Assembly: GCF_031254035.1 (NCBI RefSeq)
Contig: NZ_JAIRVF010000123.1
Source: Paenibacillus sp.
GTDB lineage: Bacteria; Bacillota; Bacilli; Paenibacillales; Paenibacillaceae
Strand: one strand, 5' to 3'
DNA: 24,000 nucleotides
Shown here: in pieces, positions 1 through 16,303 of the stretch
Layout: the number at the start of each line of letters is the position of its first letter
Numbering within the stretch: position 1 is the first letter of the stretch
Made by a program: the position numbers and the translations under genes
The notes under the pieces: generated by a model
The model's database searches: none
Told to the model about the DNA's origin: nothing
What the model saw: the letters and a program-made list of their open reading frames with translations, nothing else

Positions 1-84
1 TACAACAACCAACGCATCCATTCTACAATTGGTTACAACACACCGTCTGATTTCGAGTTAAGCTACTGGAATCAGGCGGCGTAG
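1..84 (+). mobile_element. 3' end of an IS3-family (rve/DDE) transposase gene, cut by the window edge
   Basis: Frame 1 reads YNNQRIHSTIGYNTPSDFELSYWNQAA-stop. The Y-N-x-x-R-x-H-S-x-(I/L)-G-Y-x-(T/S)-P-x-x-F pattern is the conserved C-terminal tail of IS3/IS150-type OrfB integrases. The right IS boundary cannot be fixed without the left end; ...TTGACA at 105-110 is one candidate terminus. Confidence 0.75.
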
Positions 85-251
85 AAAAATCTGTGTCTAC
101 TATCTTGACAGAAGTCCAGGTTCTTCGAAACAAACCGGGATCAAATCCAAAATCATTTATGAAGTTACCTACATACCTTTACAAATTATTGTGAAGGTAT
201 TAGGAGTAGGTATGGATTTTAGTGACAACTCTTTTAAAATTACAAGTAAGT

Positions 252-277
252 GAAGGGGCGATGCCCCTTCTTTTTTA
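252..277 (+). terminator. Rho-independent terminator-like hairpin
   Basis: GAAGGGGC (252-259), loop gat, GCCCCTTC (263-270), then TTTTTT (271-276). This is a perfect 8-bp GC-rich stem followed by a T-run. Confidence 0.7.
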
Positions 278-452
278 TATCTGGAATAATCTCACAACAA
301 AAATAGAGACTGATGATCGCATGAAGAAATACCCTTAAAGCGGCCTGGCTTCCTTGAGAGTATGTCGACGGATAATTTTGTGCATTTTCAAATGAAAGCT
401 GAATAATTAATGAATCTACCTATTTATCATATTTAATAGACCATCCAGATTA

Positions 453-482
453 TTGACCATGTGTTAAATGTCCTTATATAAT
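453..482 (+). promoter_or_regulatory. Sigma-A-type promoter for the 523-1639 cassette
   Basis: TTGACC (453-458), 18-nt spacer, TATAAT (477-482). It lies about 40 nt upstream of the AAAGGAGG RBS at 507-514. Confidence 0.55.
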
Positions 483-522
483 ATATATTGCTAATATTTG
501 TAATATAAAGGAGGTTATTCCT

Positions 523-1380
523 TTGATAGAAAACTATACTTCGATTGAACAAATCGATATAGACACATTGGTCAATATGGTAAAAATGGCGTATGAATTC
601 GAGAACTGGCGAGAAGTCATCTCATTATCTGCCAGCTTGTTGGATTCTGCCGAAACTATCAATAATAACCCATATAAAGGGTTACATGTTGGCCTGGAAA
701 CCAAAAGACATATTTCTTATTATTTTGGTTACAGTTACTTGATGAAGGGTCTTGCTTTTCAGAAATTAAAAATGTTTCCATATGCATTTGAATGCATCGA
801 CTATTACTCGGATTTAAGTTGGCTGGATGATTCAACGGATGAAGCGAATACAGTGATTGAAGATTTCAGAAAATTCGCCAAAGGAAATTTATTGACACTC
901 GAAATCTTGACCGGGAACAAAACCAAGCTGTCGGAGTATGTAGAATTTCTGGAACAAAACCATGATCAAATTCTTTCTGGGCTTATTACCTTGCTTGAAT
1001 CAGCCATTTACCATGGTTATAGTATTGATCGTGAATTGGAGCAGCTGACATATTACGTTCAAGACTCCTATCACGCTGATAAAGTATTGGCAACAAGATA
1101 TCTATCATTCTCATTTATGCTGTCATTATATGATTCTTTAAATAATAATTTGAAAAATGCTATCAACAGATCTTTACATAATTTAGTATTTTCTGATAAA
1201 ATAGGAAACGACAATTATTTTAAAAAATCTGTCATATTATTCGAGACACTTAAGCCCCACGCATCAGCTTCTCAACTTAGAGATTATTCGACTTTAATCA
1301 AAAAAATTTTTGAAGGAGAGATTTCTAATGAAGAAGGCTTTAACTTTAGTCACCGCTTTAGCCATCATCGCATTCAGTAG
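523..1380 (+). CDS. Hypothetical all-helical TPR-like protein without HTH; candidate RNPP/Rap-like peptide receptor
   Basis: A 285-aa ORF with a TTG start 8 nt after a strong RBS (AAAGGAGG). The in-frame upstream region is closed by TGA at 454-456, so there is no hidden N-terminal domain. Residues 64-97 (ISYYFGYSYLMKGLAFQKLKMFPYAFECIDYYSDL) fit a TPR-like helix-pair pattern, and no helix-turn-helix is recognisable at the N-terminus. The 3' end is overlapped by a signal-peptide/repeat-peptide gene, as in rap-phr pairs. The function is an inference. Confidence 0.8.
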   Translation: MIENYTSIEQIDIDTLVNMVKMAYEFENWREVISLSASLLDSAETINNNPYKGLHVGLETKRHISYYFGYSYLMKGLAFQKLKMFPYAFECIDYYSDLSWLDDSTDEANTVIEDFRKFAKGNLLTLEILTGNKTKLSEYVEFLEQNHDQILSGLITLLESAIYHGYSIDRELEQLTYYVQDSYHADKVLATRYLSFSFMLSLYDSLNNNLKNAINRSLHNLVFSDKIGNDNYFKKSVILFETLKPHASASQLRDYSTLIKKIFEGEISNEEGFNFSHRFSHHRIQ

Positions 1381-1639
1381 TGCTGCATTACCGTCCGTTA
1401 CACAAGCAAGCGCGCCGGTCAAACAATTAAATCATGGTGCTGAATATTCTGCTCTTAACCACGGCGCTGAATACTCTGCTCTTAACCACGGGGCCGAATA
1501 CTCTGCTCTTAACCACGGCGCTGAATACTCTGCTCTTAACCACGGCGCTGAATACTCTGCTCTTAACCATGGTGCTGAATACTCGCCACTTAACCACGGG
1601 GCTGAATACTCTGCTCTTAACCATGGTGCTGAATATTAA
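1328..1639 (+). CDS. Secreted precursor with Sec signal peptide plus 8 tandem copies of LNHGAEY(SA); candidate multi-copy signalling pro-peptide
   Basis: ATG at 1328 lies 7 nt after GAAGGAGAG; the ORF-track start at 1310 has no RBS. The signal peptide is MKKALTLVTALAIIAFSSAALPSVTQA|SAPVKQ, with an n-region, hydrophobic core and AXA-like TQA site. It is followed by LNHGAEYSA x5, LNHGAEYSP, LNHGAEYSA, then LNHGAEY-stop. Nucleotide differences between the copies are almost all synonymous in this frame only. Confidence 0.85.
   Translation: MKKALTLVTALAIIAFSSAALPSVTQASAPVKQLNHGAEYSALNHGAEYSALNHGAEYSALNHGAEYSALNHGAEYSALNHGAEYSPLNHGAEYSALNHGAEY
1427..1636 (+). repeat. In-frame 27-nt tandem repeat, 7 full copies plus a terminal 21-nt copy
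   Basis: The unit is ctt aac cac ggc gct gaa tac tct gct, repeated head-to-tail with no unique spacers. The copies differ at third-codon positions. Confidence 0.97.
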
Positions 1640-1646
1640 TCTTGTG

Positions 1647-1685
1647 AACAACGAATCGTTCTTACGAACGGTTCGTTGTTTTTTC
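1647..1685 (+). terminator. Rho-independent terminator of the cassette
   Basis: AACAACGAATCGTT (1647-1660), loop cttacg, AACGGTTCGTTGTT (1667-1680). This gives a 14-bp stem with one G-U pair, followed by TTTT. It starts 8 nt after the stop codon. Confidence 0.85.
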
Positions 1686-2049
1686 ATTAACTGCTTATAT
1701 CCAAACGGGGCATCCGGCCAAGTTTCCATGTCAATTTCTAAGTATTCTCCGATACCTCCCTCCGATTCCATTATCTCTCGAAAGCATCGATAAGGTTCAG
1801 CAAGAATGGCTTCTTCAATCTTCTCACATATTCCTAACTCCATAAATAGTTCGATTCGAACTAGGTAGTGTTTCTTCTAACAGATAACGCATAAAAATGA
1901 AAAAGCACCACTGCACTGCAAAAATCACAATGATAATTGCAACACAATGGTGTCTTTAGGTGAACATGAAGAAAAGGTTCTTTTTAACTATTGGCGAGCG
2001 GGCAGTGGATACTATATCCATCACAAGCACTGCCACACAAAACAATTAT

Positions 2050-3804
2050 TTATTTGTTAACTTTTGAAGCGACTTTAGCATCGAGGCTATTGATATAACT
2101 TGTTACCAGCTCCTGCACTTCCTCGGCTGTCCCAACACCCAGTGCTTTTGTTGCCAGCTTCTCAGTGCCGGCTAAGTTTAACTTAGCAATAAGGGAACGA
2201 GCGGGCAGGATGGAAGCGGCACTCATGCTGAACTCGTCTAACCCCAATCCAACCAGAATCGGAATGGCGGTTGAATCGCCAGCCATCTCTCCGCACATAC
2301 CAACCCAGCGTCCTTCACGATGTGCTGCATCGATTACCATCTTGACTAAGCGGAGGATCGATGGATGAAACGGCTGGTATAAGTAGGATACTCGTTCATT
2401 CATTCGGTCTGCAGCCATCGTATATTGAATCAGGTCATTCGTGCCAATGCTGAAGAAATCAACTTCCTTTGCAAACCGATCGGCTAACATAGCTGTAGAA
2501 GGAATTTCAACCATGATGCCCAGCTCGATTGAGTCAGAAACAGGGATGTTCTCTGCTTCGAGCTTCGCTTTCTCTTCATGAAAAAGAGCTTTGGCCTGTC
2601 GGAATTCCTCTAGGGTTGCAATCATCGGGAACATGATGCGAAGGTTGCCAAAGACACTTGCCCGCAGCAGGGCGCGAAGCTGAATACGAAAAATTTCCTG
2701 AAGCTCTAAACATAAACGTATAGCGCGAAAACCAAGGAACGGGTTCATCTCTTTCGGTAACTCCAGATATGGCAATTCCTTGTCTCCACCGATATCCAAA
2801 GTTCGAATAACAACAGGTTTGCCCTCCATTTTTTCCAAAACGGTCTTATAGGCAATGAACTGCTCCTTCTCAGAGGGCATTTTGTCTCTCCCCATATATA
2901 GGAACTCAGTGCGGTACAATCCTATGGCCTCACAACCGTTAGCAAGCGCATTCACTGCATCGGAGGAATTACCGATGTTGGCAGCCAGTTCTACATGAGC
3001 ACCGTCCTTTGTGAGTGTAGGCTCGTTCCGCAGCTTAGCCCATTCCGCACGTTTTTTCTCGTACTCCTGCTGCTTTATTTGGTAATCTTTCAGTGTTTCA
3101 CTATCCGGATTTACGATAACAAGTCCTTCCGAACCATCAAGAATAAGCGTATCGCCATCATGAACCTGCGTCAAAATATTTTTTGTTCCCACAACAGCAG
3201 GGATTTCCATTGATCTGGCCATGATCGCAGAATGTGAGGTGCGTCCTCCGATATTGGTCGCGAAACCCAATACATATTCTCGGTTCAATTGCGCTGTATC
3301 CGACGGAGTCAGATCCTCAGCAACCAAGATAACTTTTTCATTTATCTCACTCAAATCTATTACCTTTACCTCTAATAGGTGACTGAGCACCCGCTTTGTT
3401 ACATCCCGCATATCCGCAGCTCGTTCTTTAAGATAAGCACTCTTCATATTTTCGAACATCGCAACTAAGTCAGCAGCAACCTCTTGAAGAGCAAATTCCG
3501 CATTCATTTGTTTATCCCTAATATGTCCCTCTACAGGATCTATAAGCTCAGGGTCGTTTAATATCAGCAGGTGAGATTCGAATATTTCTGCTTTCTCCGC
3601 ACCATACTGCTGGAAGGTTCGTTCCTTAAGGGACTGTATCTCAATTCGAGCTGATTCTAAGGCTCTGCGAAATCTGGAAATTTCAAGAGCGACATCCTTC
3701 ACAATCCGTTTCTCTATGATGAGAGGGACTTGCTCCATAATAAAAGCCTTAGCGATAACAATTCCTGCCGCCGCTGCAATACCTTGGATCTTAATCATGG
3801 ACAA
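2050..3804 (-). CDS. ptsI: Phosphoenolpyruvate-protein phosphotransferase (PTS Enzyme I)
   Basis: 584 aa with an EI-typical N-terminus ([18 protein letters not shown]), a phosphohistidine region ([17 protein letters not shown]) and a C-terminal PEP-utilising domain ([17 protein letters not shown]). The start is TTG at 3804 (GAAGGG 7 nt upstream) or ATG at 3798. It overlaps the ptsH stop. Confidence 0.95.
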
Positions 3805-4066
3805 TTCCCAGCCCTTCTCTCACGAATATCTCCTCGAATGCTGCAATGACTTCCGCTTCGTCTTCCCCCTTCGCTATAAAAGTAATCGTATCCCCTTTTT
3901 CAAGCCCAAGAGAAAGGACACCAAGAAGAGATTTCATAGTCACCTTCCTGCCGCTGGCCTCAGCGAATACTTCAGATTTGTACTTATTCGCAGTATTGAC
4001 AAGAATTGTTGCTGGACGTGCGTGGATTGCGTCCTCGTCCGTAATCTTGAATGTGATGATTTGCAT
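3791..4066 (-). CDS. ptsH: Phosphocarrier protein HPr
   Basis: 91 aa when started at MQIITF (GGAGA 8 nt upstream). The track start at 4075 has its ATG abutting the SD. With this start, His15 (AIHARPA) and Ser46 ([13 protein letters not shown]) fall at the canonical positions. Confidence 0.93.
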
Positions 4067-4108
4067 GAAGTTCATCTCCAGTTCTCTAAACTATTACTTT
4101 GTTTAATG

Positions 4109-6214
4109 TCAATCTTCTTCTACCTCCATAGCGCGATAAAATGCGGTCTCCATTGAACCTCCCTCGGCCAATTCACTTAGAAATGAAGAACTCATCAATT
4201 TATCCAAATCAAATAACAGAGGTACATGCGTCATTTTTTCATCGGTAGATAATAGAATAATTAACTCTACTTCTAAAAAGGGGTCATCTTCTGTGATGAG
4301 CCCCGTTGCTGTATGCAACATACTGATTCCTGGTTTAAATGAGCCATATCGATAATCCGTATGCAATAAAAGAACTTTCGGATAAATAAAAAACCATTTG
4401 GATTCATCGACTATTTGCCGCCGGATCTCTGTCACATAAGAAGCTTGTATATAGTTTTTCCGCAACAGTGGAGCTGCCAGCAAATCAAGCGCTTCATCAA
4501 AAGAAACAATACGACTCAGTTGAAAAATATGTTCCGGGTTCCAGGCAGTCAGCAGGCTAACCTTTTCGATTGACTGAGTTTCCGTTCGACCACTCAAATA
4601 CAGAGCCTCAATTCGTCCGATCAATTCATCCCTAGATATGTCCGGTTCATCAAGTAAGCTCGCAAGCTGCTCTCGTCTGTTTGATGCCATTAACCGTCCT
4701 TTGATAATATGCAAGATCCGATCTTTATCGCCATTTGAAAGAATCGAATTGACATAGATCGTCTCCCCAGATGCATGCACATAGGTGCGATCCGTTGTAA
4801 TGCAATAATTTACGATAGGCTTGAAATCGGATGCATCTTTTACCGTGTACACACCGAGAATGACAGATTTGGGTAGAAGTTGCTTAATATGCGTAAGCAG
4901 CAGTGAATTATAGACATTAGCATAATCGGAAACGATTACAATATTATGAGCAGCTTTCTGAGTTTGTTCCCGCAATACGGATTCTTCAAAATAGAGGGAC
5001 AAACTAGCCGTCTCATCATCTGTCAACCCACTTGGATAATATCTTTTGAATACAGAGCTTGCTGAGACATGTGCCAATGATTTTTTGGTCAGCATATAGA
5101 TTTCCTTGCATTGTGTCACGACATAAACCAATGACTCCGTAGGCATGACCAGATTAAACACATGCCGATAATATAATACCTTCATGTGCGTCTGCACATT
5201 CTCAAAAAGTCGTTCCCGCTGCTTAGAATGCATTCCTGATACCATCTCAAAGTAATCAATTAACATAAAAGTCATGTCGCCGATCTCTTCAAACGACGTG
5301 CTTTTATAATGTGAATCCGTATTTTTCTGCATGCACAGTAGCAGCATGCCATAAAATACAGCCTCTTCGTCAGGTATAGCTAGATTCAAATAAGAGGAGA
5401 ACAATTCGGTTAAATATTGGGCTGCTTTATATTCCAAACGATCTGTAATTAATACCTTTAGATTGTCCGGCCAGTGAATTTCATTTCCCATCAAAACCCG
5501 TACAAGGAAGATTAACGAGGTACGTGCCAAGATCCGAACATCCTGCTCAGCATATTGCTTTTGTAAGACGGTTTCGGTCTTCTTAATACAAAGACTAAAA
5601 TGGTGAAATGATTCACAATGATTTATTGCTCGTATAGCTTCTTGGGACTGAATAAATTCCGTCATGAAAAAATCATAGGCTTGCTCCATGTTCTCGAAGT
5701 CTTGCATGAATTGATAAATTTTACGACGACGTGATAATTCATCCATATCCACGTAGTAACCACGCTTTTTATCCGAGTTCAGCATGTACCCATGTTCCGA
5801 CTGCGCCAATTTCTTTTTAATAAATTGTATATCTTTAATCACGGTGTTGCGGGAAACCATCGTGAGTTCCATCAAATCGGATAGGAACCATTTCCGACTC
5901 TCTACCAACAGCAGCATTAAAATAACTTGGCGACGCTCGTTCGTGGTTAGAATATATTCATCCTGCTCATATTCGTTTGACCACTTCATCATTTGATTCG
6001 CCTGTTTAAGCGTAACAGACATTCCGCCACCCTTAACTCTCGTCAGCGGAGGAAGGTTCGCTTGCTTAAAAAGACAATCCAGACGGTCCATGTAGTAATA
6101 GATCATTCTTCTGGAAAGATCTGTTCCTACAGCCATAGCCGATATGTTTATAATGCTCTTTTTTTCAGCCAGAACTTTAATAAAGAGACAGAAATGATTA
6201 TCGATTTGAATCAT
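4109..6214 (-). CDS. PRD-containing PTS-controlled transcriptional activator (MtlR/LicR/ManR-like: HTH - PRDs - EIIB-like - EIIA(Fru/Mtl)-like)
   Basis: 701 aa with an N-terminal HTH region (ISAMAVGTDLSRRMIYYYMDRL) and a long helical PRD-like middle. The C-terminal PTS_EIIA_2-like segment (YPKVLLLHTDYRYGSFKPGISMLH...ILLSTDE) resembles the adjacent UlaC fold family. There is no AAA+ (sigma-54) module. It sits inside a PTS operon. Confidence 0.8.
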   Translation of the reverse strand: MIQIDNHFCLFIKVLAEKKSIINISAMAVGTDLSRRMIYYYMDRLDCLFKQANLPPLTRVKGGGMSVTLKQANQMMKWSNEYEQDEYILTTNERRQVILMLLLVESRKWFLSDLMELTMVSRNTVIKDIQFIKKKLAQSEHGYMLNSDKKRGYYVDMDELSRRRKIYQFMQDFENMEQAYDFFMTEFIQSQEAIRAINHCESFHHFSLCIKKTETVLQKQYAEQDVRILARTSLIFLVRVLMGNEIHWPDNLKVLITDRLEYKAAQYLTELFSSYLNLAIPDEEAVFYGMLLLCMQKNTDSHYKSTSFEEIGDMTFMLIDYFEMVSGMHSKQRERLFENVQTHMKVLYYRHVFNLVMPTESLVYVVTQCKEIYMLTKKSLAHVSASSVFKRYYPSGLTDDETASLSLYFEESVLREQTQKAAHNIVIVSDYANVYNSLLLTHIKQLLPKSVILGVYTVKDASDFKPIVNYCITTDRTYVHASGETIYVNSILSNGDKDRILHIIKGRLMASNRREQLASLLDEPDISRDELIGRIEALYLSGRTETQSIEKVSLLTAWNPEHIFQLSRIVSFDEALDLLAAPLLRKNYIQASYVTEIRRQIVDESKWFFIYPKVLLLHTDYRYGSFKPGISMLHTATGLITEDDPFLEVELIILLSTDEKMTHVPLLFDLDKLMSSSFLSELAEGGSMETAFYRAMEVEED

Positions 6215-6264
6215 TTATATTCAGTCCTTCATGTAGACGAGCAATAAGCAGGCAAACGGACTAA

Positions 6265-6987
6265 TCAGCTTTTTGCCAGTCTATTTTTTTGTCCGTAATA
6301 AGCATTAGAACCGTGTTTTCTGAAATAATGTTTGTCTAGTAAATATTGCGGAATCCGCTGCTGATCATTTGACACTAGCAGTGTATGCAGAGCCATATCC
6401 GCAACTTCATCAAGTACAACACTGTTTTGAACTGCCGCTTTGGCGTCCTTCCCCCAGGTAAATGGCCCGTGTCCACGCACAATCACTCCCGGTACAGCTA
6501 GGGGATCAAGATTCCGTTCACGGAACGTCTCGACAATCACATTACCTGTCTCCGTTTCATAACCCTGCATCACCTCTTCCTCCGTCAATTGACGGGTACA
6601 AGGCACAGGACCGTAAAAAGTATCCGCATGTGTGGTTCCATAGACCGGAATATCCTGTCCTGCTTGCGCCCAGGCCACTGCCCATTTGGAATGTGTGTGC
6701 ACTACAGCACCAATGTCTGCAAAAGCTTTGTACAATACCAAGTGGGTTGCCACATCTGAAGATGGTGACAGCTCGCCTTCCAGCACATTGCCTTCCAAAT
6801 CAATCACAACCATATCATCCAGACTCATATCGGCATATGGAACACCACTTGGCTTAATGACAACAATCTCTCTTTCACGATCAATCATACTGACATTTCC
6901 CCAAGTTAGCTTAACCAGCCCTGATCGGGGTAGGTCTAAATTGGCACGCAGTACCTCAATTTTTAATGGAGTAAAACTTGTTTTCAT
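6265..6987 (-). CDS. ulaF: L-ribulose-5-phosphate 4-epimerase (class II aldolase fold)
   Basis: 240 aa, collinear by eye with E. coli UlaF/SgbE/AraD. Shared motifs: TWGNVS, VVIKPSG, PSSDxATHL, VHTHS, GTTHAD, HGPFxWGKDA, RKHGxNAYYGQK. Confidence 0.92.
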
Positions 6988-7840
6988 AATTGTAGCCTGC
7001 TTCCTTTAGTTTAGGTAATAGAAAAGCAAGAGCTTTAGCGATTTCATCACGATAATCCTCGCTTTTTTCGCTCCACATTTCGATCAAAAACGGGCCGTGA
7101 TAATCTATTGCCTTCAATGTTTTCAATGCGCTTATAAACTCGACACACCCGTCTCCGAACGGGACATCTTTAAATTTACCTGGAAATTCACTTGTCACTT
7201 TCATCGTATCTTTTAGATGCACTGCAGCTATATCATATTTTCCCCGATTTAATTCAGCGGTCACGTTATTATCCCACGCGGACAGGTTGCCGAGATCCGG
7301 ATACACATAGAGCCACGGTGAACCCACTTCAGCAGCGATGGACAGGTAGCTGGTAATCGAATTCATAAATGGATCGTCCATTATTTCAATGGCTAGAATA
7401 ACTTGTTTAGCCTGAGCCCATGTGCATGCCAATTTTAAGTTGTCAATAAAATACTGCCGTGTCATTTCATCTTTTGACTCATAATAGACATCATATCCAG
7501 CCAGTTGGATCACACGAATTCCTAAGTCATCAGCCAGTTCAATCGCCTTATGAATAAGAGAGAGACCTTTCTCCCGAATAGCGGAGTCGTGGGAACCAAG
7601 TGGATAGCGCCGATTTCCACTCAGACACATCGTAGGCACCCGGACACCTGTTTGGAGACTGGCGAGAACGAATTCTCGCCGCTCCTCCTGGGTCCAGTCT
7701 AGGCGACTCAATCGCTCATCGGTTTCATCGACGGACATCTCCACAAAATCAAATCCTAGCTCTTGCGCAATAAGCAACCGCTCAAGCCAAGAAATACCAC
7801 TCGGCAATGCCTTTTCATAAATACCGATCGGATTCATCAT
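6956..7840 (-). CDS. ulaE: L-xylulose/L-ribulose-5-phosphate 3-epimerase
   Basis: Collinear with E. coli UlaE: [48 protein letters not shown], [12 protein letters not shown], LIEMWSE. The preferred start is ATG 7840, which overlaps the ulaD TGA (TGATGATG). The track TTG at 7852 is less likely. Confidence 0.92.
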
Positions 7841-8484
7841 CAGTTCCCCCAAATTCTCGCAATCTCCGCCTTAAATTCACGAGCCGCCTGCGCTGGATCA
7901 GCTGCCTCACGAATACCGCGACCAGCGATGAAGGTGTACACATCAATACCTTTGAACAATGCCAATGTATCGACTTCCAATCCACCAGTAACAGACACCT
8001 TAAATCCCATTTCTACCAATTTCCGAATTTTGTTTAAATCTTTTTCGCCCCATGTCTCACCCGCTAGCAGCGCATCGCGGCTTTGATGATAGATAACTTG
8101 GGACAACCCGGCCTCTTTCCAGGCAAGCGCGTGTTCAAATGTCCAGTCCCCATATAATTCTACCTGCAAATCCCTTACTTCTTTCATTGCTGCCTTCATC
8201 GTCGGGATGGTGGCTGAACAGATCACCGTCATCCAGTCCGCACCTGCATCCGCACAATTTCTAGCTACCGTACCTCCTGCGTCCGCACATTTCGTATCCG
8301 CTAAAATTATTTTTTCGGGATACAACGCGCGCAAACAACGTACTGCCTCCATTCCTTCTGCTAAACATAATATCGTACCTGCTTCAATGATATCGACTTC
8401 ATGGCCAACGGCCAGAACTGAGCTCAAGGCTTCACTTAATATCGAGTTGTCTAGTGCAATTTGTAAATTGGGCAAACCCATCAT
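7840..8484 (-). CDS. ulaD: 3-keto-L-gulonate-6-phosphate decarboxylase
   Basis: 214 aa, collinear with E. coli UlaD/SgbH: LQxALDN, VDIIExGTILC, LADxKxADAG, ADWxTVIC, FKVxVTGGL, FIAGRxIRxAxxP. Confidence 0.92.
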   Translation of the reverse strand: MMGLPNLQIALDNSILSEALSSVLAVGHEVDIIEAGTILCLAEGMEAVRCLRALYPEKIILADTKCADAGGTVARNCADAGADWMTVICSATIPTMKAAMKEVRDLQVELYGDWTFEHALAWKEAGLSQVIYHQSRDALLAGETWGEKDLNKIRKLVEMGFKVSVTGGLEVDTLALFKGIDVYTFIAGRGIREAADPAQAAREFKAEIARIWGN

Positions 8485-8495
8485 AATCCTCTCCT

Positions 8496-8966
8496 CTACT
8501 TTAAATAAGAACTTGTATCCACCTGATCGATCATTTGCAAAATATCATCGATTGAAGTAGCTGCCACCATCTGATCCAGTACATTCGGACCATCAAAAAG
8601 GGCTACGATCTGCGGAATTGCGATGCTCGAATGAATAGACGGAGACGTAGCCGCCAGTGCTATCAGCACTTGTACTTCCTTGCCGTCAGAAAACTCCACA
8701 GGTTTGTCTAAAATAACGAGACTAAAAGCGTCGCGATTCACCCCATCCTTCGGGCGCGCATGGGGCATGGCCATCCCTGGAGTCAAAATATAATAAGGTC
8801 CATGAAGTTCAGTTGAGGCAATAATCGCTTGCGTATATCTGGGCTCTACTGCACCGCTTTTGACTAACGGCTCCGTTGCTCTTTCAATTGCTTCCTGCCA
8901 TGTCTTTGCCGTCGCATTCAATAGGATAGAATCATTTTCAACTAAGGACTGCTTCAGATTTAACAT
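8496..8966 (-). CDS. ulaC: PTS ascorbate-family EIIA component
   Basis: 156 aa, collinear with E. coli UlaC: TWQEA, VEPRY, HGPYxxLxPGxAMPHxRP with the phosphorylatable His. Confidence 0.9.
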   Translation of the reverse strand: MLNLKQSLVENDSILLNATAKTWQEAIERATEPLVKSGAVEPRYTQAIIASTELHGPYYILTPGMAMPHARPKDGVNRDAFSLVILDKPVEFSDGKEVQVLIALAATSPSIHSSIAIPQIVALFDGPNVLDQMVAATSIDDILQMIDQVDTSSYLK

Positions 8967-8986
8967 CGATGCTGCCTCCTTTTCCC

Positions 8987-9265
8987 CTACAAAATGCTGC
9001 TGAGTTTCGCACTGATTTCAGCTTCATCCATCAAATTGTCGAGTCCGAGCAAATGACCTTTAGTCCGTCCCTCCAGCTCGTGTATCAGATGTACTGAAGC
9101 GACAATAACATCGTATCCACTTGCTTGTGCTTTGGCTTCACCGACACTGCAATAATCAACTTTAAAATCTGTTTTTCCCATTCCCCGTAATACCTTTTCA
9201 ATTTTCATTTTGATCACCATACTAGAACCCATACCATTTCCACATGCAGCTAATATTTTTAACAT
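8987..9265 (-). CDS. ulaB: PTS ascorbate-family EIIB component
   Basis: 92 aa from MLKILAACGNGMGSS, with the active-site Cys in the CGNGxGSS loop as in UlaB. AAAGGA lies 8 nt upstream of this ATG. The track start at 9274 has no spacer to the SD. Confidence 0.9.
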   Translation of the reverse strand: MLKILAACGNGMGSSMVIKMKIEKVLRGMGKTDFKVDYCSVGEAKAQASGYDVIVASVHLIHELEGRTKGHLLGLDNLMDEAEISAKLSSIL

Positions 9266-9297
9266 TTCAACCATCCTTTCAATTTTTAAAGTCGAGG

Positions 9298-10725
9298 TTA
9301 TTCTAAACCTTCCTCATACGCTTTCTTATCTTTTGCTCGAGCAAACTGGATAAGTGGGATTGCGAGCATAAAGAGCACGACAATAACAATGCCCCAAATA
9401 TGGCAATACTTAAGCAACATCGCTACAGGTGTCCAGAAGATTTCAAAGTCAATGTTTCCGTGCCAGCCTCCGAATTTATATAGACCGACAAGCATCACTG
9501 CAAAAGCACTGATCGACACTTGCAAGATCCCTGAGACGAAGGAGCATATCATCGCCGCTCTTGTTCCCCCACGTTTGTTTGCAAACACAGCAATGGTCGC
9601 ATTATCGAAGAAGACAGGAACGAATCCGGTAATAATCAGCACGGGTGCCTTGAACAAGACCATACCTAGAATGACGATAAACTGACCCAATGCTCCAAAA
9701 ATAAAACCAAACAAAATTGCATTGGGTGGTGCAAAACTATATACAGCTGCGCAATCTACAGCAGGAAGCGCTCCCGGCAAAATGCGATTGGAAATCCCTT
9801 GGAATGAGTTCGTCAGTTCTGCGACAAACATTCGCACACCTTGCATCAGGATGGCGAGGTACACCGAAAAGTAAAGAGCTTCTGACAAAATATATGTGCC
9901 GAAAGATAATGTCTCTGGGAACTTTGCCGGATTCATTGCGCGAAGGTAGTCATCGCCCAAAATCACCATAATGGACCCGAAGAATAGGAGCATCAGCGTA
10001 CTTGTCGCCACAATGTTATCGTGGAATATTGACAACCACTTGGGCAATCGGATATTTTCCAAGTTCTTTTTAGGGTCTCCCAACTTCCCTGCGAATTTAT
10101 CCGTTAACCAGACCGCAAACATTTGCTGATGTCCGATCGCAAAACCAGCATTACCTGTCAATCGCTGAGTGGGACCTACCGTCAAATTAGAAGAAACCAT
10201 CCAGTAAAGACCTACCAATACACCTACAATAGCAGCACCAATCATATTCTGATATTCAGGGAACAGAAAGAAAATAATCCACGTAACCGTTGTTGCTTGC
10301 TGCACCATAATGTGTCCGGTAATGAACAAAGTTCTTATTTTCGTAAATTTCCGCAGTAAGACTAACACAATATTCAGTATGAATCCGATAAGCAATGAAA
10401 TCATTGTCCAGGAAGTCGTTAGACCAACAGAATCCAAAGCTGCGTTTACAGCGTTTAATCCAAAATAGGGGTCAATAATCGCCGCCTCTAACTTGAAGCG
10501 ATCATTAAGGCCTGCCAAAATAGGACGGAAAGTGGTGACTAGACCAGCAGCCCCAACATTCAGGATCATATAGCCGACAACTGCCTTGACAAATCCAGCA
10601 AAGCATTCATAAAAAGGTTTTTTGAGCAAGATATAACCTAGAAGAACAATAAGTCCAACAAAAAATTCCGGTCTCGTCAAAATATTGTTCGCAAACCAAC
10701 TAAACAAATTGAGTAAAGTATCCAT
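9298..10725 (-). CDS. ulaA: PTS ascorbate-family EIIC permease
   Basis: 475 aa and polytopic, collinear with E. coli UlaA: GHIMxQQ, GHQQ, FHDNIV, QGVRMFVAEL, IDCAAxYSFAP, FANxxGG. The RBS is AAGAGGTGA. Confidence 0.93.
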   Translation of the reverse strand: MDTLLNLFSWFANNILTRPEFFVGLIVLLGYILLKKPFYECFAGFVKAVVGYMILNVGAAGLVTTFRPILAGLNDRFKLEAAIIDPYFGLNAVNAALDSVGLTTSWTMISLLIGFILNIVLVLLRKFTKIRTLFITGHIMVQQATTVTWIIFFLFPEYQNMIGAAIVGVLVGLYWMVSSNLTVGPTQRLTGNAGFAIGHQQMFAVWLTDKFAGKLGDPKKNLENIRLPKWLSIFHDNIVATSTLMLLFFGSIMVILGDDYLRAMNPAKFPETLSFGTYILSEALYFSVYLAILMQGVRMFVAELTNSFQGISNRILPGALPAVDCAAVYSFAPPNAILFGFIFGALGQFIVILGMVLFKAPVLIITGFVPVFFDNATIAVFANKRGGTRAAMICSFVSGILQVSISAFAVMLVGLYKFGGWHGNIDFEIFWTPVAMLLKYCHIWGIVIVVLFMLAIPLIQFARAKDKKAYEEGLE

Positions 10726-10787
10726 TCATCACTCACCTCTTAATTTTCTCGCTGACAAATAAAACGGTTACATTTATCTAGCTAATA

Positions 10788-10829
10788 CTCAATTCAGACT
10801 TACAATTATGACGATAAGTCTGAATTGAG
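10788..10829 (-). other. Perfect 15-bp inverted repeat (RNA hairpin) in the ulaG-ulaA intercistronic gap
   Basis: CTCAATTCAGACTTA (10788-10802), 12-nt loop, TAAGTCTGAATTGAG (10815-10829). On the transcribed (-) strand it begins 10 nt after the ulaG stop and is followed by tattagc, which is not a U-tract. Confidence 0.8.
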
Positions 10830-10839
10830 AGGTTAATGA

Positions 10840-11904
10840 TTATAAGAATGACTTAAAGGGCATATCTGGTTCAATGGTGAAAACATCGTTAAAGCCTCTT
10901 GGATAATGATATTCGAGTTTGTCTTTATCATTTGGATAAACAAACTTCCCGCCTACTTGCCACGTATATGGTTTGAACTGATAGTTCAAGCGGTCTTTTT
11001 TCGATTCCCAAAGCAATTGCAATTCTTTCGGGTCTGCTTGGAAATTGGACCAAATATCATAATGGACGGGAATGACTACGTTAGCTTTCAGTGCCTCAGC
11101 CATCCGCAGCATATCAACAGAAGTGATTTTATCTGTGATGCCACGAGGATTCTCACCATATGCACCCAGACAAACATCAATCTGATGCTCGTTTCCATGT
11201 TTTGCGAAGTAATTGGAGTAATGTGAATCCCCTGCGTGATACAAACTACCACCTGAAGTTTTGAACAAGTAATTGACGGCTACTTCATCCATCTCCATCG
11301 GCATCTTACCTTTTAAAGTCACGTTCTGTGGTACAGTCACCAAGGCTGTACGATCAAACGCTTCCAAGACAACGATTTCAACATCCTTTATTTTGATGAC
11401 ATCTCCTGGTTTTACTACGATGCAGCGTTCTTCGGGCACGCCCCAGCTCGTCCAGAGATCAACGCAAGCTTGCGGGCCAATAAAGGGAACAGTTGACGCA
11501 CAATTTTGCAAAACGGCCGCAGCAGTATTGATATCAATATGATCCGAGTGAAAATGAGTAACGATCAGAGCATCCAGATTCTTGATCGCAAAAGGATCGA
11601 TGACAAAAGGGGCTGTCCGTAAATTGGGTTGCAACTCCTTACAGCCACTCATCCGTTGCATTTGATGACCGTCTTTCATCCATTTATTTTTACGCGTTTG
11701 CTTTCCCGTTCCACACCAGAGATCAACCAGCAGGTTGGCATCTCCTTCGGATTTAAGATAAATTCCCGTACAACCCAACCACCACATCGCAAACGTATTT
11801 TTCTCAACAACCGTTTCGTCTATTTCCTCATTCAACCACGTGCCCCATTCTGGAAATGTACTTAAAATCCACTTTTCTCGTGTAATATCATTGATATTTG
11901 CCAT
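10840..11904 (-). CDS. ulaG: L-ascorbate-6-phosphate lactonase (metallo-beta-lactamase fold)
   Basis: 354 aa from [21 protein letters not shown] (GAGGGA 8 nt upstream). It is collinear along its whole length with E. coli UlaG: WWLGCTG, FWCGTGK, HxHxDHID, YLFKTxGGSLYHxGDSHYSN, [11 protein letters not shown], [24 protein letters not shown]. The 65 extra N-terminal codons of the track ORF are not supported. Confidence 0.93.
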
Positions 11905-11937
11905 TTTAAATTTCCCTCGTTTCGGTAAATGGTTTTT

Positions 11938-11959
11938 AAAAAGAAAACGTTTTCTTTTT
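11938..11959 (-). promoter_or_regulatory. 22-bp perfect palindrome with a cre-like core (candidate CcpA site or operator)
   Basis: AAAAAGAAAAC|GTTTTCTTTTT. The central 15-mer AAGAAAACGTTTTCT matches the cre consensus WTGNAANCGNWNNCW at all but one position (A for T at position 2). It lies between the TATAAT box and the ulaG RBS. Confidence 0.5.
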
Positions 11960-11967
11960 ATGATTAA

Positions 11968-11973
11968 ATTATA
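11968..11973 (-). promoter_or_regulatory. Candidate -10 box of the ula operon promoter
   Basis: The minus strand reads cctggtTATAATtt, 64 nt upstream of the ulaG ATG. No good -35 is present (ttttca/tttttc), which fits an activator-dependent promoter. Confidence 0.4.
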
Positions 11974-12212
11974 ACCAGGTCGTTGACTGTGAAAAAGTCT
12001 AACCTGCACACAAGCGAGCTGTACATGGGTGCACTGAAAAACTTGCCAGAAAAAACGCCTCGTTGCTTTAAGGGAAATATAGATTTGTTCTATTATCATA
12101 GAATCAATAAAGAATTAATTCTATATCATTCTTCTGTTTCTCCTAAGTAAATATCGGTAAATATTCATCTTATTGGGGTATACTTTCGCAGAACAGAAAT
12201 CACCTTGAAAAC

Positions 12213-14320: not shown

Positions 14321-16303
14321 TTAAAATGCACGCATCACATGCATCAAATATTCGTTTCGCTGCAGCGGATTATAATCGGTCCGCGGTCTAGTCGGAACAT
14401 CACTATGGACCTGGATGAATCCAGCCGGCTCCGTCATCATAAAACCTTCGCCTTGAGTAAAGGCGTGCAGGCTTCTTTTGAAGCTTTCTGTCATGCTGAC
14501 GGGAATGGTGCCCGAAATATGAGCCATGCCGTGTTCCACATCCGTTTCGCTTATTATCGCCTGGATGGCGGATAATTTGAAAACCGCTTTGCTCATTGCC
14601 TCTTTAGGTACCGTCAGTACATAGCTGTAAATCGGTTCATACACTTCCGTACCCGCCTGCACCAGCGCTTCCATGAACACAAGCGGAACAAGCTTCCGAA
14701 AATCGCCTGCGGTTGTCACTGGGCTCGCATATCCGGTGTGGGTCAATGTGACAATGATATCGGTGACTTCCCATCCAAACAAACCTTGCAAAAGCGTTAA
14801 GTGGACCGTTTCTTCAATCGCTTTATGAAAAGCCAAAGGTAGTGAACCCAGCTCGACTTCGAGCCGGTATGTGATTCCGCTTCCTGGCCCGCCGGGTTCG
14901 ATTCGAAAACCTACGGTCGCATAAAATGGATTATCGCCCTCCATGATGACTTCCAGCGCCTGCCCTACTCCCGCCGGTTTCTCCACGCAGACGGTTCGGG
15001 TCTCTGCAAACCGGACAGCCACGGAATAGGTTTCTTTCAAAGCAGATTCAATCACTTCTTTTTGCACTTCGCCGAAAATGCGGATATACAGATCCTGATG
15101 GATTTCATTTTTAACCACCTGAATTAGAGGATCTTCCTCCGACATACTAACAAGAGCCTGGTACAGGTGATGGGTTTGGCTTGGGTCCGCTGCTTCGATT
15201 TTCGTCTCCATCCGGGGCACAGCGAAGCTGAACCGCTTGATCTGATTAGATGATTCGCCGACGATATCCCCGATCCGAACATCTTCCAGCCCCCATACTT
15301 TAGCCAAATCACCGGCACCAATCTTGGCAGCGGGAACGGATTTTCCGTTCATCAAAGCATGGAGCTTTTTGATTTTGCAATCATAGATTTCGTATTCACC
15401 CTGCTTGTTGTTCCGCCCGACCTTCACTTGCTCTCGCAAGGAGAGACTGCCTGAAAACAGCCTGATATAAGCTATTTTTTCCCCGCTTGCTTCTCTTTCG
15501 AGTTTAAACACAATCCCCGACAAAAACGTTTCATCCGGCTGAGTTTCATTCACCGGAAACCATCGGGTTATGCCTGCAAGCAAGTCCGCAACACCTACCC
15601 CGGTCACGGCCGATCCAAAATATACCGGATGCGCATTCACTTGCCGCACCTGATCCCTAAATGCTGCTTCGACCCGTTCTCCCGGCAGCATCTCGCCATG
15701 GATATAAGACTCGAGCAACGACTCGTCATAGGATGACAAAAGTTCGATGCATTGCTCCAAAAACGCGGAGTCCGTGTCCCAATCGAAACGTTTAAGAGAA
15801 ACAGACGCTTCTTTCAGGCCCGCATTGGTGATTTTACATAAAGAAACCACGGACGGTGCAAGCTTAGCGCGGATTTGTTCGACCGACTGCTCACTCCGAG
15901 CGCCAAGCCGATCTATTTTGTTCACGAATAAAATTGTGGGAATCCCCATTTTCCGCAGAACGGAAAACAGTATTTTCGTCTGCGCCTGCACGCCTTCCAC
16001 CGCCGAAATGACCAAAATAACGCCATCCAATACGCTAAGGGAGCGCTCCACTTCAGCGATAAAATCAGCATGGCCCGGTGTGTCGATCAAATTCACCTTG
16101 TAATCGCCCAGATTAAAAGAAACCACGGACGCCTTGATCGTGATCCCTCTTTTCCGTTCCAGATCCATGGCATCCATCTGCGTGTTCCCTTGATCCACTC
16201 TTCCGAGCTCGTCAATCACATTCGTATCGAATAAAATGCGTTCAGCCAAACTTGTCTTTCCGGCGTCTACATGCGCCAAGATCCCTATATTTATAATTTT
16301 CAT
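14321..16303 (-). CDS. Tet(M)/Tet(O)/TetB(P)-family ribosomal protection protein (EF-G-like GTPase)
   Basis: 660 aa. The N-terminus MKIINIGILAHVDAGKTSLAERILF is nearly identical in pattern to Tet(M) and lacks the N-terminal extension of EF-G. It has G motifs AHVDAGKT, DTPGH and NKID, and is collinear in many blocks: SLSVLDGVILVISAVEGVQAQT, KMGIPTILFVNKID, AYIRLFSG, GLFGWEVTD. Confidence 0.85.
   Translation of the reverse strand: MKIINIGILAHVDAGKTSLAERILFDTNVIDELGRVDQGNTQMDAMDLERKRGITIKASVVSFNLGDYKVNLIDTPGHADFIAEVERSLSVLDGVILVISAVEGVQAQTKILFSVLRKMGIPTILFVNKIDRLGARSEQSVEQIRAKLAPSVVSLCKITNAGLKEASVSLKRFDWDTDSAFLEQCIELLSSYDESLLESYIHGEMLPGERVEAAFRDQVRQVNAHPVYFGSAVTGVGVADLLAGITRWFPVNETQPDETFLSGIVFKLEREASGEKIAYIRLFSGSLSLREQVKVGRNNKQGEYEIYDCKIKKLHALMNGKSVPAAKIGAGDLAKVWGLEDVRIGDIVGESSNQIKRFSFAVPRMETKIEAADPSQTHHLYQALVSMSEEDPLIQVVKNEIHQDLYIRIFGEVQKEVIESALKETYSVAVRFAETRTVCVEKPAGVGQALEVIMEGDNPFYATVGFRIEPGGPGSGITYRLEVELGSLPLAFHKAIEETVHLTLLQGLFGWEVTDIIVTLTHTGYASPVTTAGDFRKLVPLVFMEALVQAGTEVYEPIYSYVLTVPKEAMSKAVFKLSAIQAIISETDVEHGMAHISGTIPVSMTESFKRSLHAFTQGEGFMMTEPAGFIQVHSDVPTRPRTDYNPLQRNEYLMHVMRAF

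Follow-up and report, generated by a model that had tools for sequence, protein, structure and literature searches.

Two overlapping genes lie near the left end of a 24,000-nucleotide (nt) stretch of Paenibacillus sp. DNA (assembly GCF_031254035.1, contig NZ_JAIRVF010000123.1; the whole stretch is called the window below), gene 1 at 523-1380 for a receptor and gene 2 at 1328-1639 for a secreted pro-peptide. Together they probably form an Alo-type (RRNPP-like) peptide quorum-sensing cassette, in a Paenibacillus near P. azoreducens, that works in the manner proposed below, and sequence comparison marks the cassette as real, functional and part of a short-receptor branch of the Alo family with an exceptionally expanded pheromone array. 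The evidence that carries this assignment is membership of the Alo family, a conserved pairing of receptor and pro-peptide, a tetratricopeptide-repeat (TPR)-like fold, the absence of a helix-turn-helix (HTH) region and selection acting on each copy of the core peptide. Paenibacillus, a genus important in agriculture, signals by peptides mainly through the Alo family, and the sole Alo system studied is Alo13, a transcription factor. Standard screens would miss the cassette, as RRNPP_detector demands both a match to a TPR hidden Markov model (HMM) and a pro-peptide of 10-70 amino acids (aa).

The receptor and the short branch of its family

An earlier reading of the window from its letters alone (the sequence-only reading) had put forward a candidate new signalling cassette and named Alo as an analogue only. 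Comparison with the P. polymyxa receptors in Supplemental Data 1 of Voichek et al. 2020 (PMC7425212) instead places gene 1 inside that family. In BLASTP searches its 285-aa product aligned end to end with AloR7 (285 aa, 33% identity, E 2e-45), near full length with AloR15 (291 aa, 28% identity, E 3e-25) and with residues 192-459 only of the experimentally validated AloR13 (467 aa, 29% identity, E 9e-34); it corresponds to the C-terminal ~270 aa of AloR13, the TPR-like part. The published definition of an Alo receptor is a BLASTP E < 1e-5 with a length of >= 250 aa (PMC7425212), and gene 1 falls within it on both counts. On sequence grounds the window cassette belongs to the Alo family and is not a new system.

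No Pfam or NCBIfam family matched the gene 1 protein, searches of PDB sequences with the single sequence, a family profile and one long-form relative returned nothing, and no match to Rap was found in Pfam, NCBIfam or PDB. In a word-indexed search the close clusters numbered only 15; every one came from Paenibacillus or Neobacillus, and UniRef labels some of them 'DNA-binding protein'. An AlphaFold2 model built from a 15-sequence alignment was all-helical, with 12 helices (pLDDT 85.7, pTM 0.79), and its best whole-length matches in a Foldseek comparison with the PDB were the peptide-binding TPR superhelices of LGN/GPSM2 and of KLC1 (kinesin light chain), while the viral fold library BFVD gave generic TPR and Sel1 matches only. 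The model supports a TPR-like solenoid as the product of gene 1.

An exhaustive profile search with the gene 1 family recovered 295 representative proteins. Many of them are long, of ~460 aa, and are the AloR receptors of Voichek et al. 2020; they carry the region homologous to gene 1 at their C-terminus and have an N-terminus resembling an XRE-type HTH, which Pfam HTH_26 and HTH_3 match weakly (E ~0.15). Among 119 full-core representatives drawn from the 150 best profile matches, 62 were long, 47 short and 10 intermediate; the short forms are without ~190 N-terminal residues of the long form, and neighbour-joining of the core region placed 38 of these 47 together in a single clade, whose N-terminus is conserved. 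The receptor homology (HMM match) is preceded in every locus by an in-frame stop <=43 codons upstream, and the stop-to-stop receptor open reading frames (ORFs) of all relatives span 272-328 aa. A profile made from the N-termini of the 62 long forms, which take in the HTH and a TPR-like part, found no match among the six-frame ORFs of 28 loci, covered for ~4 kb on each side in most cases, and none in the 24-kb window. Neither a split gene with a separate HTH part nearby nor a remnant was found in the 28 loci or the window. The sequences indicate that the absence of the HTH is real and is a property of a largely monophyletic short AloR clade.

The in-frame stops and the unmatched N-terminus profile uphold the sequence-only reading in describing a receptor without an HTH. 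Its view that such a receptor is atypical is not supported, as the published AloR7 and AloR15 also lack the HTH region (PMC7425212 supplement) and are accompanied by xHGxxx peptides; an HTH is therefore not a defining feature of the published Alo family. Both receptors were found in all 14 P. polymyxa strains examined (PMC7425212), and the P. polymyxa Alo set comprises 14 long and two short receptors. The existence of a sizeable conserved HTH-less branch (47/119) means that the description of the family needs correction and that there is a new output mechanism to find.

Gene 1 is under purifying selection, with a ratio of nonsynonymous to synonymous substitution (dN/dS) of 0.11 against two orthologues. 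This bears on a reading in which gene 1 is what decay has left of an HTH-bearing AloR that lost its N-terminal part, has no function of its own and stands beside an array produced by neutral slippage, as might be suggested by the missing ~190 residues, by three related loci with frameshifted receptors and by an insertion sequence (IS) element just upstream. Such a history is the most improbable of the readings considered. Besides the low dN/dS, it sits badly with the gathering of 38 of the 47 short representatives in one clade with a conserved N-terminus, with a promoter and strong ribosome-binding site (RBS) of the gene's own that are kept in P. azoreducens (locus L004) and with the presence of AloR7 and AloR15 in every P. 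polymyxa strain examined, and the synonymous-only changes in the core of the array, described below, rule out neutral drift of the repeats.

The pro-peptide, its array and its conserved pairing

Gene 2 has an ATG start at 1328 and encodes 103 aa on the plus strand, as read from the ORF and its translation, MKKALTLVTALAIIAFSSAALPSVTQA-SAPVKQ and then LNHGAEY eight times over, with S-A (in one place S-P) between the units. Residues 1-27 (1328-1408) form a predicted Sec signal peptide, recognised by inspection, with MKK, a hydrophobic core and SVTQA, and the short pro-region SAPVKQ (1409-1426) separates it from the first repeat. The eight 27-nt units occupy 1427-1636, each consisting of L, the NHGAEY core and an S-A/P spacer, with the last unit lacking the spacer; Tandem Repeats Finder reported a 27-nt period x 7.3 copies at 1439-1635 (score 317). 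Across the eight copies there are six nucleotide substitutions in the 18-nt core and all are synonymous third-position changes, and the core differences among the 14 copies of P. azoreducens KCTC 3829 are likewise synonymous only, where a synonymous share of ~18% would be expected for random single-base changes in the core codons. Amino-acid changes in the 8 + 14 copies are confined to the 3-residue spacer. Because the core varies only synonymously and the spacer alone changes in amino acids, the hexapeptide is the unit of selection. The array is coding and selected, beyond chance.

Database searches with the pro-peptide gave no significant Pfam or NCBIfam match; there was a weak, non-significant resemblance to the His-Xaa-Ser repeat protein HxsA4 (E 2.3). 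An exact look-up of two pro-peptide sequences in a protein collection found neither recorded, and a homology search of 5.8 billion protein clusters returned a single homologue, which is an incomplete version of this ORF, with no anchored repeat proteins among the homologues. A signal peptide followed by a low-complexity repeat, the His, Glu and Tyr of the core and the HxsA4 resemblance might be taken to mean that the product of gene 2 is a repetitive protein secreted for a structural or surface role, or else a His/Glu/Tyr-rich peptide that binds metal, and that it is unrelated to gene 1 and beside it only incidentally. This is far-fetched, as the protein has no anchor, wall-binding or transmembrane segment and its C-terminus is exactly the last core, the clusters searched held nothing of that kind, most relatives have one C-terminal core in an ORF of 35-45 aa that is too small for a structural role, and the overlap register with the receptor is conserved family-wide, AloR13/AloP13 included.

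The pairing of receptor and pro-peptide was surveyed in 24 loci with gene 1 relatives and in further places by reading the DNA at receptor 3' ends. In 23 of 25 complete cassettes in relatives an ORF begins within the last codons of the receptor with MK[KN] and a hydrophobic stretch, and ends in [N/D]HGxx[Y/F/I], sometimes with 2-6 extra residues, as in ..FNHGSEY, ..YNHGADF, ..LDHGSEFRPK, ..FNHGTGYGPGKL and ..LNHGQEY. The peptide variants track the receptor clades. The RNPP-type logic of a receptor with an overlapping gene for a Sec-exported pro-peptide, which the sequence-only reading had recognised, is thus borne out by the pairing across relatives. Two intact receptors were without a pro-peptide gene (L014 and L021) and count as orphan or 'eavesdropper' receptors; at three other loci (L024-L026) the receptor gene (region 4001-4860) is split by a frameshift or stop with the pro-peptide gene intact, and these may be signal-only loci. 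At a P. dendrobii locus (L003) there are two tandem short Alo cassettes, at 4001-4925 and 5267-6188, with different peptides (..YNHGADF and ..FNHGVDYDG). On the P. polymyxa plasmid p-YT9A (L029, 1495-2461) a 293-aa short AloR, labelled 'DNA-binding protein' by PGAP despite having no HTH region, is followed by an unannotated two-copy pro-peptide and has a small divergent HTH regulator gene upstream.

The receptor tail ..NEEGF.. and the start of the peptide, MKK.., are written in the same nucleotides in two frames, in the window and in AloR13/AloP13 alike. In the model the tail ..NEEGFxFS.. (window 1322-1380) is disordered, with pLDDT <50. The conservation of this disordered tail is probably imposed by the overlapping signal peptide.

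The published pro-peptides supply the register of the signal. AloP7 ends in ..FYHGANH, AloP15 in ..S|NHGVFSFTA and AloP13 in ..S|SHGRGG, mass-spectrometry fragments show a cut one residue before xHG, synthetic SHGRGG was active on AloR13 at 10 nM to 5 uM, and the P. polymyxa Alo pro-peptides as a group are 32-50 aa long with an N-terminal hydrophobic signal sequence (PMC7425212). Gene 2 agrees with these in its position, its overlap and its MKK plus hydrophobic N-terminus, and at 103 aa it lies outside the published length range owing to the eight-copy array, single-copy relatives measuring 37-45 aa. By alignment to the published AloP peptides the mature signal here is likely to be NHGAEY. A register of six residues is indicated because the repeat has a 6+3 structure, because single-copy relatives end directly after the sixth residue and because the sixth residue is hydrophobic or aromatic wherever an extension follows.

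The number of cores varies widely among relatives. Most, P. chibensis among them, have one core, at the C-terminus of an ORF of 35-45 aa; two are found on the P. polymyxa plasmid (L029, ..NNHGANSFQPNNHGANS), three in the P. rhizosphaerae / P. favisporus group (L012/13/17, ..LNHGANYDTANHGANYSIQNHGANY), eight in the window and 14 in P. azoreducens (L004), whose receptor is 93% identical. In a third genome with this cassette the contig breaks inside the array. Short-read assemblies stop inside the repeat array (contig ends of L028 and L031), and gene callers missed the overlapping pro-peptide ORF in single-copy loci (L001, L003). Because of such uncalled ORFs and array-broken assemblies, both the pro-peptide gene and its copy number are systematically under-recorded in public data. 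The 1, 2, 3, 8 and 14 copies beside near-identical receptors offer a natural series for the study of pheromone dosage against quorum threshold.

A multi-copy precursor, which the sequence-only reading had called atypical, is not unprecedented. Pro-peptides of the Phr type are reported to hold as many as eight identical pheromones, and in Phr105 (ERPVGT-LKLA-ERPVGT) two identical hexapeptides are separated by a 4-aa spacer, the internal and terminal copies both being matured by extracellular proteases, with WprA required for the internal one (Felipe-Ruiz et al. 2024, PMC11343458). There is accordingly precedent in kind, and the 14 copies of P. azoreducens are above the reported maximum of eight in Phr. 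Tandem cores are not discussed in the Alo paper (PMC7425212) and no other report of them was found; among identical-pheromone arrays found reported for such systems, none is larger than those of the 8- and 14-copy precursors.

Layout of the cassette and its surroundings

The cassette is a block on the plus strand at 204-1686, made up of an upstream hairpin, a promoter, the aloR-like gene, the aloP-like gene and a terminator, and was delimited by blastn against L004. Identity is ~87% between window 204-1686 and L004 3676-5326 (P. azoreducens KCTC 3829), and both flanks are unrelated between the two. A sigma-70-type promoter-like site, TTGACC-18-TATAAT (453-482, plus strand), scores 11/12 as a consensus match only; it is the top-scoring promoter candidate in 200-2100 and is kept in L004. 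The RBS of gene 1, AAAGGAGG (507-514, plus strand), was read from the sequence 8 nt 5' of the TTG start at 523 and is strong and conserved in L004. The frame of gene 1 (plus strand) is closed upstream by an in-frame TGA at 454-456, giving a stop-to-stop ORF from 457. The RBS of gene 2, GAAGGAGAG (1312-1320, plus strand; GAAGGAG at 1312-1318), again read from the sequence, stands 9 nt before the ATG at 1328 and is located in the gene 1 codons for E-G-E; gene 2 overlaps the 3' end of gene 1 by 53 nt in a different frame. Downstream there is an intrinsic terminator-like hairpin with a 16-pair stem and a T-run (1646-1681, plus strand; inverted repeat 1647-1661/1666-1680), also kept in L004. The two genes are proposed, from these signals, to form a single transcript running from the promoter at 453-482 to the terminator at 1646-1681. 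Promoter, terminator, both genes, their RBSs, the upstream TGA and the 53-nt overlap had all been correctly described in the sequence-only reading.

Some other candidates within the block were set aside. The TTG at 1310 was rejected as the start of gene 2, the homologues all beginning at MKK and the RBS suiting the ATG at 1328, and two long ORFs over the array (1427-1843 on the minus strand and 1434-1793 on the plus strand) were rejected as by-products of the repeat. The minus-strand ORF, which starts at 1843 (MELGICEKIEEAILAEPYRCFREIMESEGG...), runs through the terminator and array to 1427 and has no Pfam match. Its part at 1687-1843 may be what is left of a gene cut off at the cassette's right edge, and if so would fit insertion or replacement at the cassette site.

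To the left, the tail of a transposase ORF of the DDE type lies at window 1-84 (plus strand), with weak rve_2/rve_3 matches (E 0.003-0.007), and fits an IS3-family element whose end is immediately to the left of the cassette, up to ~203; similarity to the P. azoreducens locus starts only at 204. The adjoining IS3 element of the sequence-only reading is weakly supported by this transposase tail. The mobile status that had been suggested for the cassette has some support, the 1.5-kb block having unrelated flanks in a relative. Plasmid and phage searches gave no close copy, only distant family members at identities <=32%, and so no sign that this particular cassette is borne on a plasmid or phage. 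Brevibacillus phage SecTim467 (L030, 910-2334) carries a gene for a 474-aa AloR-like 'putative DNA-binding protein' adjoining a Spo0E-like gene, a pair that echoes the Alo13-spo0E arrangement, and its annotated overlapping 45-aa ORF is unlike AloP.

The remainder of the window holds metabolic and regulatory genes. On the minus strand at 2050-12099 are ptsI, ptsH, a PRD/HTH/EIIA regulator, a class II aldolase, a xylose-isomerase-like TIM barrel, an OMP-decarboxylase-family enzyme, EIIA, EIIC-GAT and a metallo-beta-lactamase-fold protein, which look like an L-ascorbate (ula)-type phosphotransferase system (PTS) operon joined to general PTS genes. A 660-aa EF-G/Tet(M)-like translational GTPase (14321-16303, minus strand; GTP_EFTU, EFG_IV, EFG_C), which could be a ribosomal-protection-type protein, stands among TetR and MarR regulators and alpha/beta hydrolases, and a GH95 enzyme is also present. 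The window has no co-oriented downstream gene for control in cis by the receptor, and neighbour genes vary from locus to locus.

The same surroundings bear on whether gene 2 might be a multi-core precursor of a ribosomally synthesised and post-translationally modified peptide (RiPP), its cores modified and then set free as a natural product, and gene 1 a protein for scaffolding or immunity. Some RiPP classes do typically have precursors with several cores, short and conserved, set between spacers that vary. Among 20 ORFs of the 24-kb window scanned with Pfam there was no RiPP maturation gene (radical-SAM, YcaO, lanthipeptide, cyclase, peptidase-ABC exporter or other), as the sequence-only reading had noted in seeing no modifying enzyme nearby, and none was called adjoining the homologues in L001 and L003. 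A Sec signal peptide in place of a leader is moreover atypical for RiPPs, and the single-core relatives suit the Alo signal model; the RiPP reading is very improbable.

Proposed mechanism and comparison with known systems

In the mechanism favoured here, the cytoplasmic receptor would consist only of the C-terminal TPR-like peptide-binding module of an AloR, and the co-transcribed pro-peptide would be exported by Sec, with its signal peptide removed, probably after TQA. Extracellular proteases would then cut the array on the N-terminal side of every Asn and the C-terminal side of every Tyr, so that one precursor could yield as many as eight identical NHGAEY hexapeptides; the predicted cuts, L|N and Y|S (as in SALNHGAEYSAL and NHGAEYSAL), would both have a large hydrophobic P1 residue. 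NHGAEY would be re-imported by an Opp-type permease and bind the concave groove of the short AloR, and the output would be a peptide-gated protein-protein interaction in trans, following Rap-like logic. The motif YYFGYSxLMK..QK and residues E159, D169, K235 and E241 are invariant and may be points of contact with the peptide. A protein-protein output is favoured because the receptor has no DNA-binding domain and there is no conserved neighbouring target gene. Multiplication of the core would raise the ratio of signal to receptor in an obligately co-transcribed pair, and gain or loss of repeats (1, 2, 3, 8 or 14 copies) would tune the density threshold.

The main alternative concerns the output. 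The same Alo cassette could act on the full-length HTH-AloR paralogues of the cell, the short receptor having no effector partner of its own and either forming inactive heterodimers with them or serving as a peptide buffer or decoy; heterodimers made via the shared C-terminal TPR module could give it a dominant-negative or anti-activator role. The short form corresponds to the last 270 aa of AloR13, Paenibacillus genomes contain both long and short receptors (14 + 2 in P. polymyxa), Alo loci cross-regulate one another as part of the published AloP13 response and no conserved neighbour gene indicates a dedicated target. The short clade is, however, old and largely monophyletic with a co-diverging peptide of its own, and a pure decoy needs no private signal. 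This alternative is judged unlikely, and the Alo-type cassette signalling through its own short receptor is preferred. It is more doubtful than that reading as a whole, and can only be put forward tentatively, that the short AloR clade is a second independent HTH-less RRNPP-type lineage after Rap, with a protein-protein output and a 1-14-copy array that retunes its threshold. If true, the quorum threshold would be retuned by expansion and contraction of a repeat and not by changes of promoter or affinity.

A number of points must be set against the signalling mechanism. No Pfam TPR model matches the gene 1 protein, and TPRpred likewise misses TPRs in most AloRs (PMC7425212). The Foldseek TPR matches have a probability of 1.0 but are weak by E value (~4e-3) and by template-modelling (TM) score (0.45-0.54), and the PDB top 50 contain no canonical RRNPP receptor; the structural check proposed with the sequence-only reading yielded the confident TPR-like solenoid. 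The text of the Alo paper gives all Alo receptors an HTH (PMC7425212), no function has been published for any short AloR, and in 3 of 24 related loci the receptor gene is disrupted, some copies evidently decaying. The Y|S cut at the C-terminal side, required to free the internal copies, has no precedent for any Alo peptide. Export, processing, import and binding are extrapolated from knowledge of RRNPP and Alo systems, as is the purpose of the copy number. The Rap-like protein-protein output, which we purely infer, is the least supported step, and Raps use an N-terminal 3-helix bundle which the short AloRs do not have.

Among known systems the closest are Alo7 and Alo15 (Voichek et al. 2020, PMC7425212), with receptors of 285 and 291 aa without an HTH region, a pro-peptide gene immediately downstream, an MKK signal peptide and the xHGxxx register (YHGANH and NHGVFSFTA). 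AloP7 and AloP15 have one core in an ORF of 35-45 aa, in contrast to the eight identical NHGAEY cores in 103 aa of the window, and no functional study of Alo7 or Alo15 has been published. Alo13 shares homology over the C-terminal 270 aa of AloR13, the two-frame overlap of the receptor's ..DEEGF.. with the MKK.. peptide start and a mature peptide, SHGRGG, which is formed by the six C-terminal residues and, like NHGAEY, has H second and G third. AloR13 is longer (467 aa) and has, unlike the window receptor, an XRE-like HTH at its N-terminus and additional TPR-like repeats, and it activates an adjacent spo0E-like gene until switched off by the peptide, whereas the window has no co-oriented downstream gene.

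PlcR-PapR, NprR-NprX and AimR-AimP each combine a cytoplasmic TPR receptor with a Sec-exported pro-peptide whose C-terminal 5-10 aa are the signal. PlcR, NprR and AimR bind DNA via an N-terminal HTH, unlike the window receptor, and none of the three was among the sequence and fold matches to gene 1. The yeast MFalpha1 product is a secreted precursor in which tandem identical pheromones are separated by short spacers that proteases remove. The analogy is formal only, as the yeast system is eukaryotic, with processing by Kex2/Ste13 in the secretory pathway, a surface G-protein-coupled receptor, no re-import and no homology.

Rap-Phr has no detectable sequence similarity to gene 1, and Raps are ~380 aa with an N-terminal 3-helix bundle contacting Spo0F/ComA, whereas the 285-aa gene 1 model starts with TPR-like hairpins. 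The two systems are alike in an HTH-less TPR receptor regulated by an imported oligopeptide and in a peptide gene, phr, that overlaps or follows rap, and Phr105 shares with the window precursor its identical hexapeptide copies with a short spacer. A review of these families describes the Raps as the only RRNPPA members without an HTH; the short AloR clade would be a second, independent HTH-less case.

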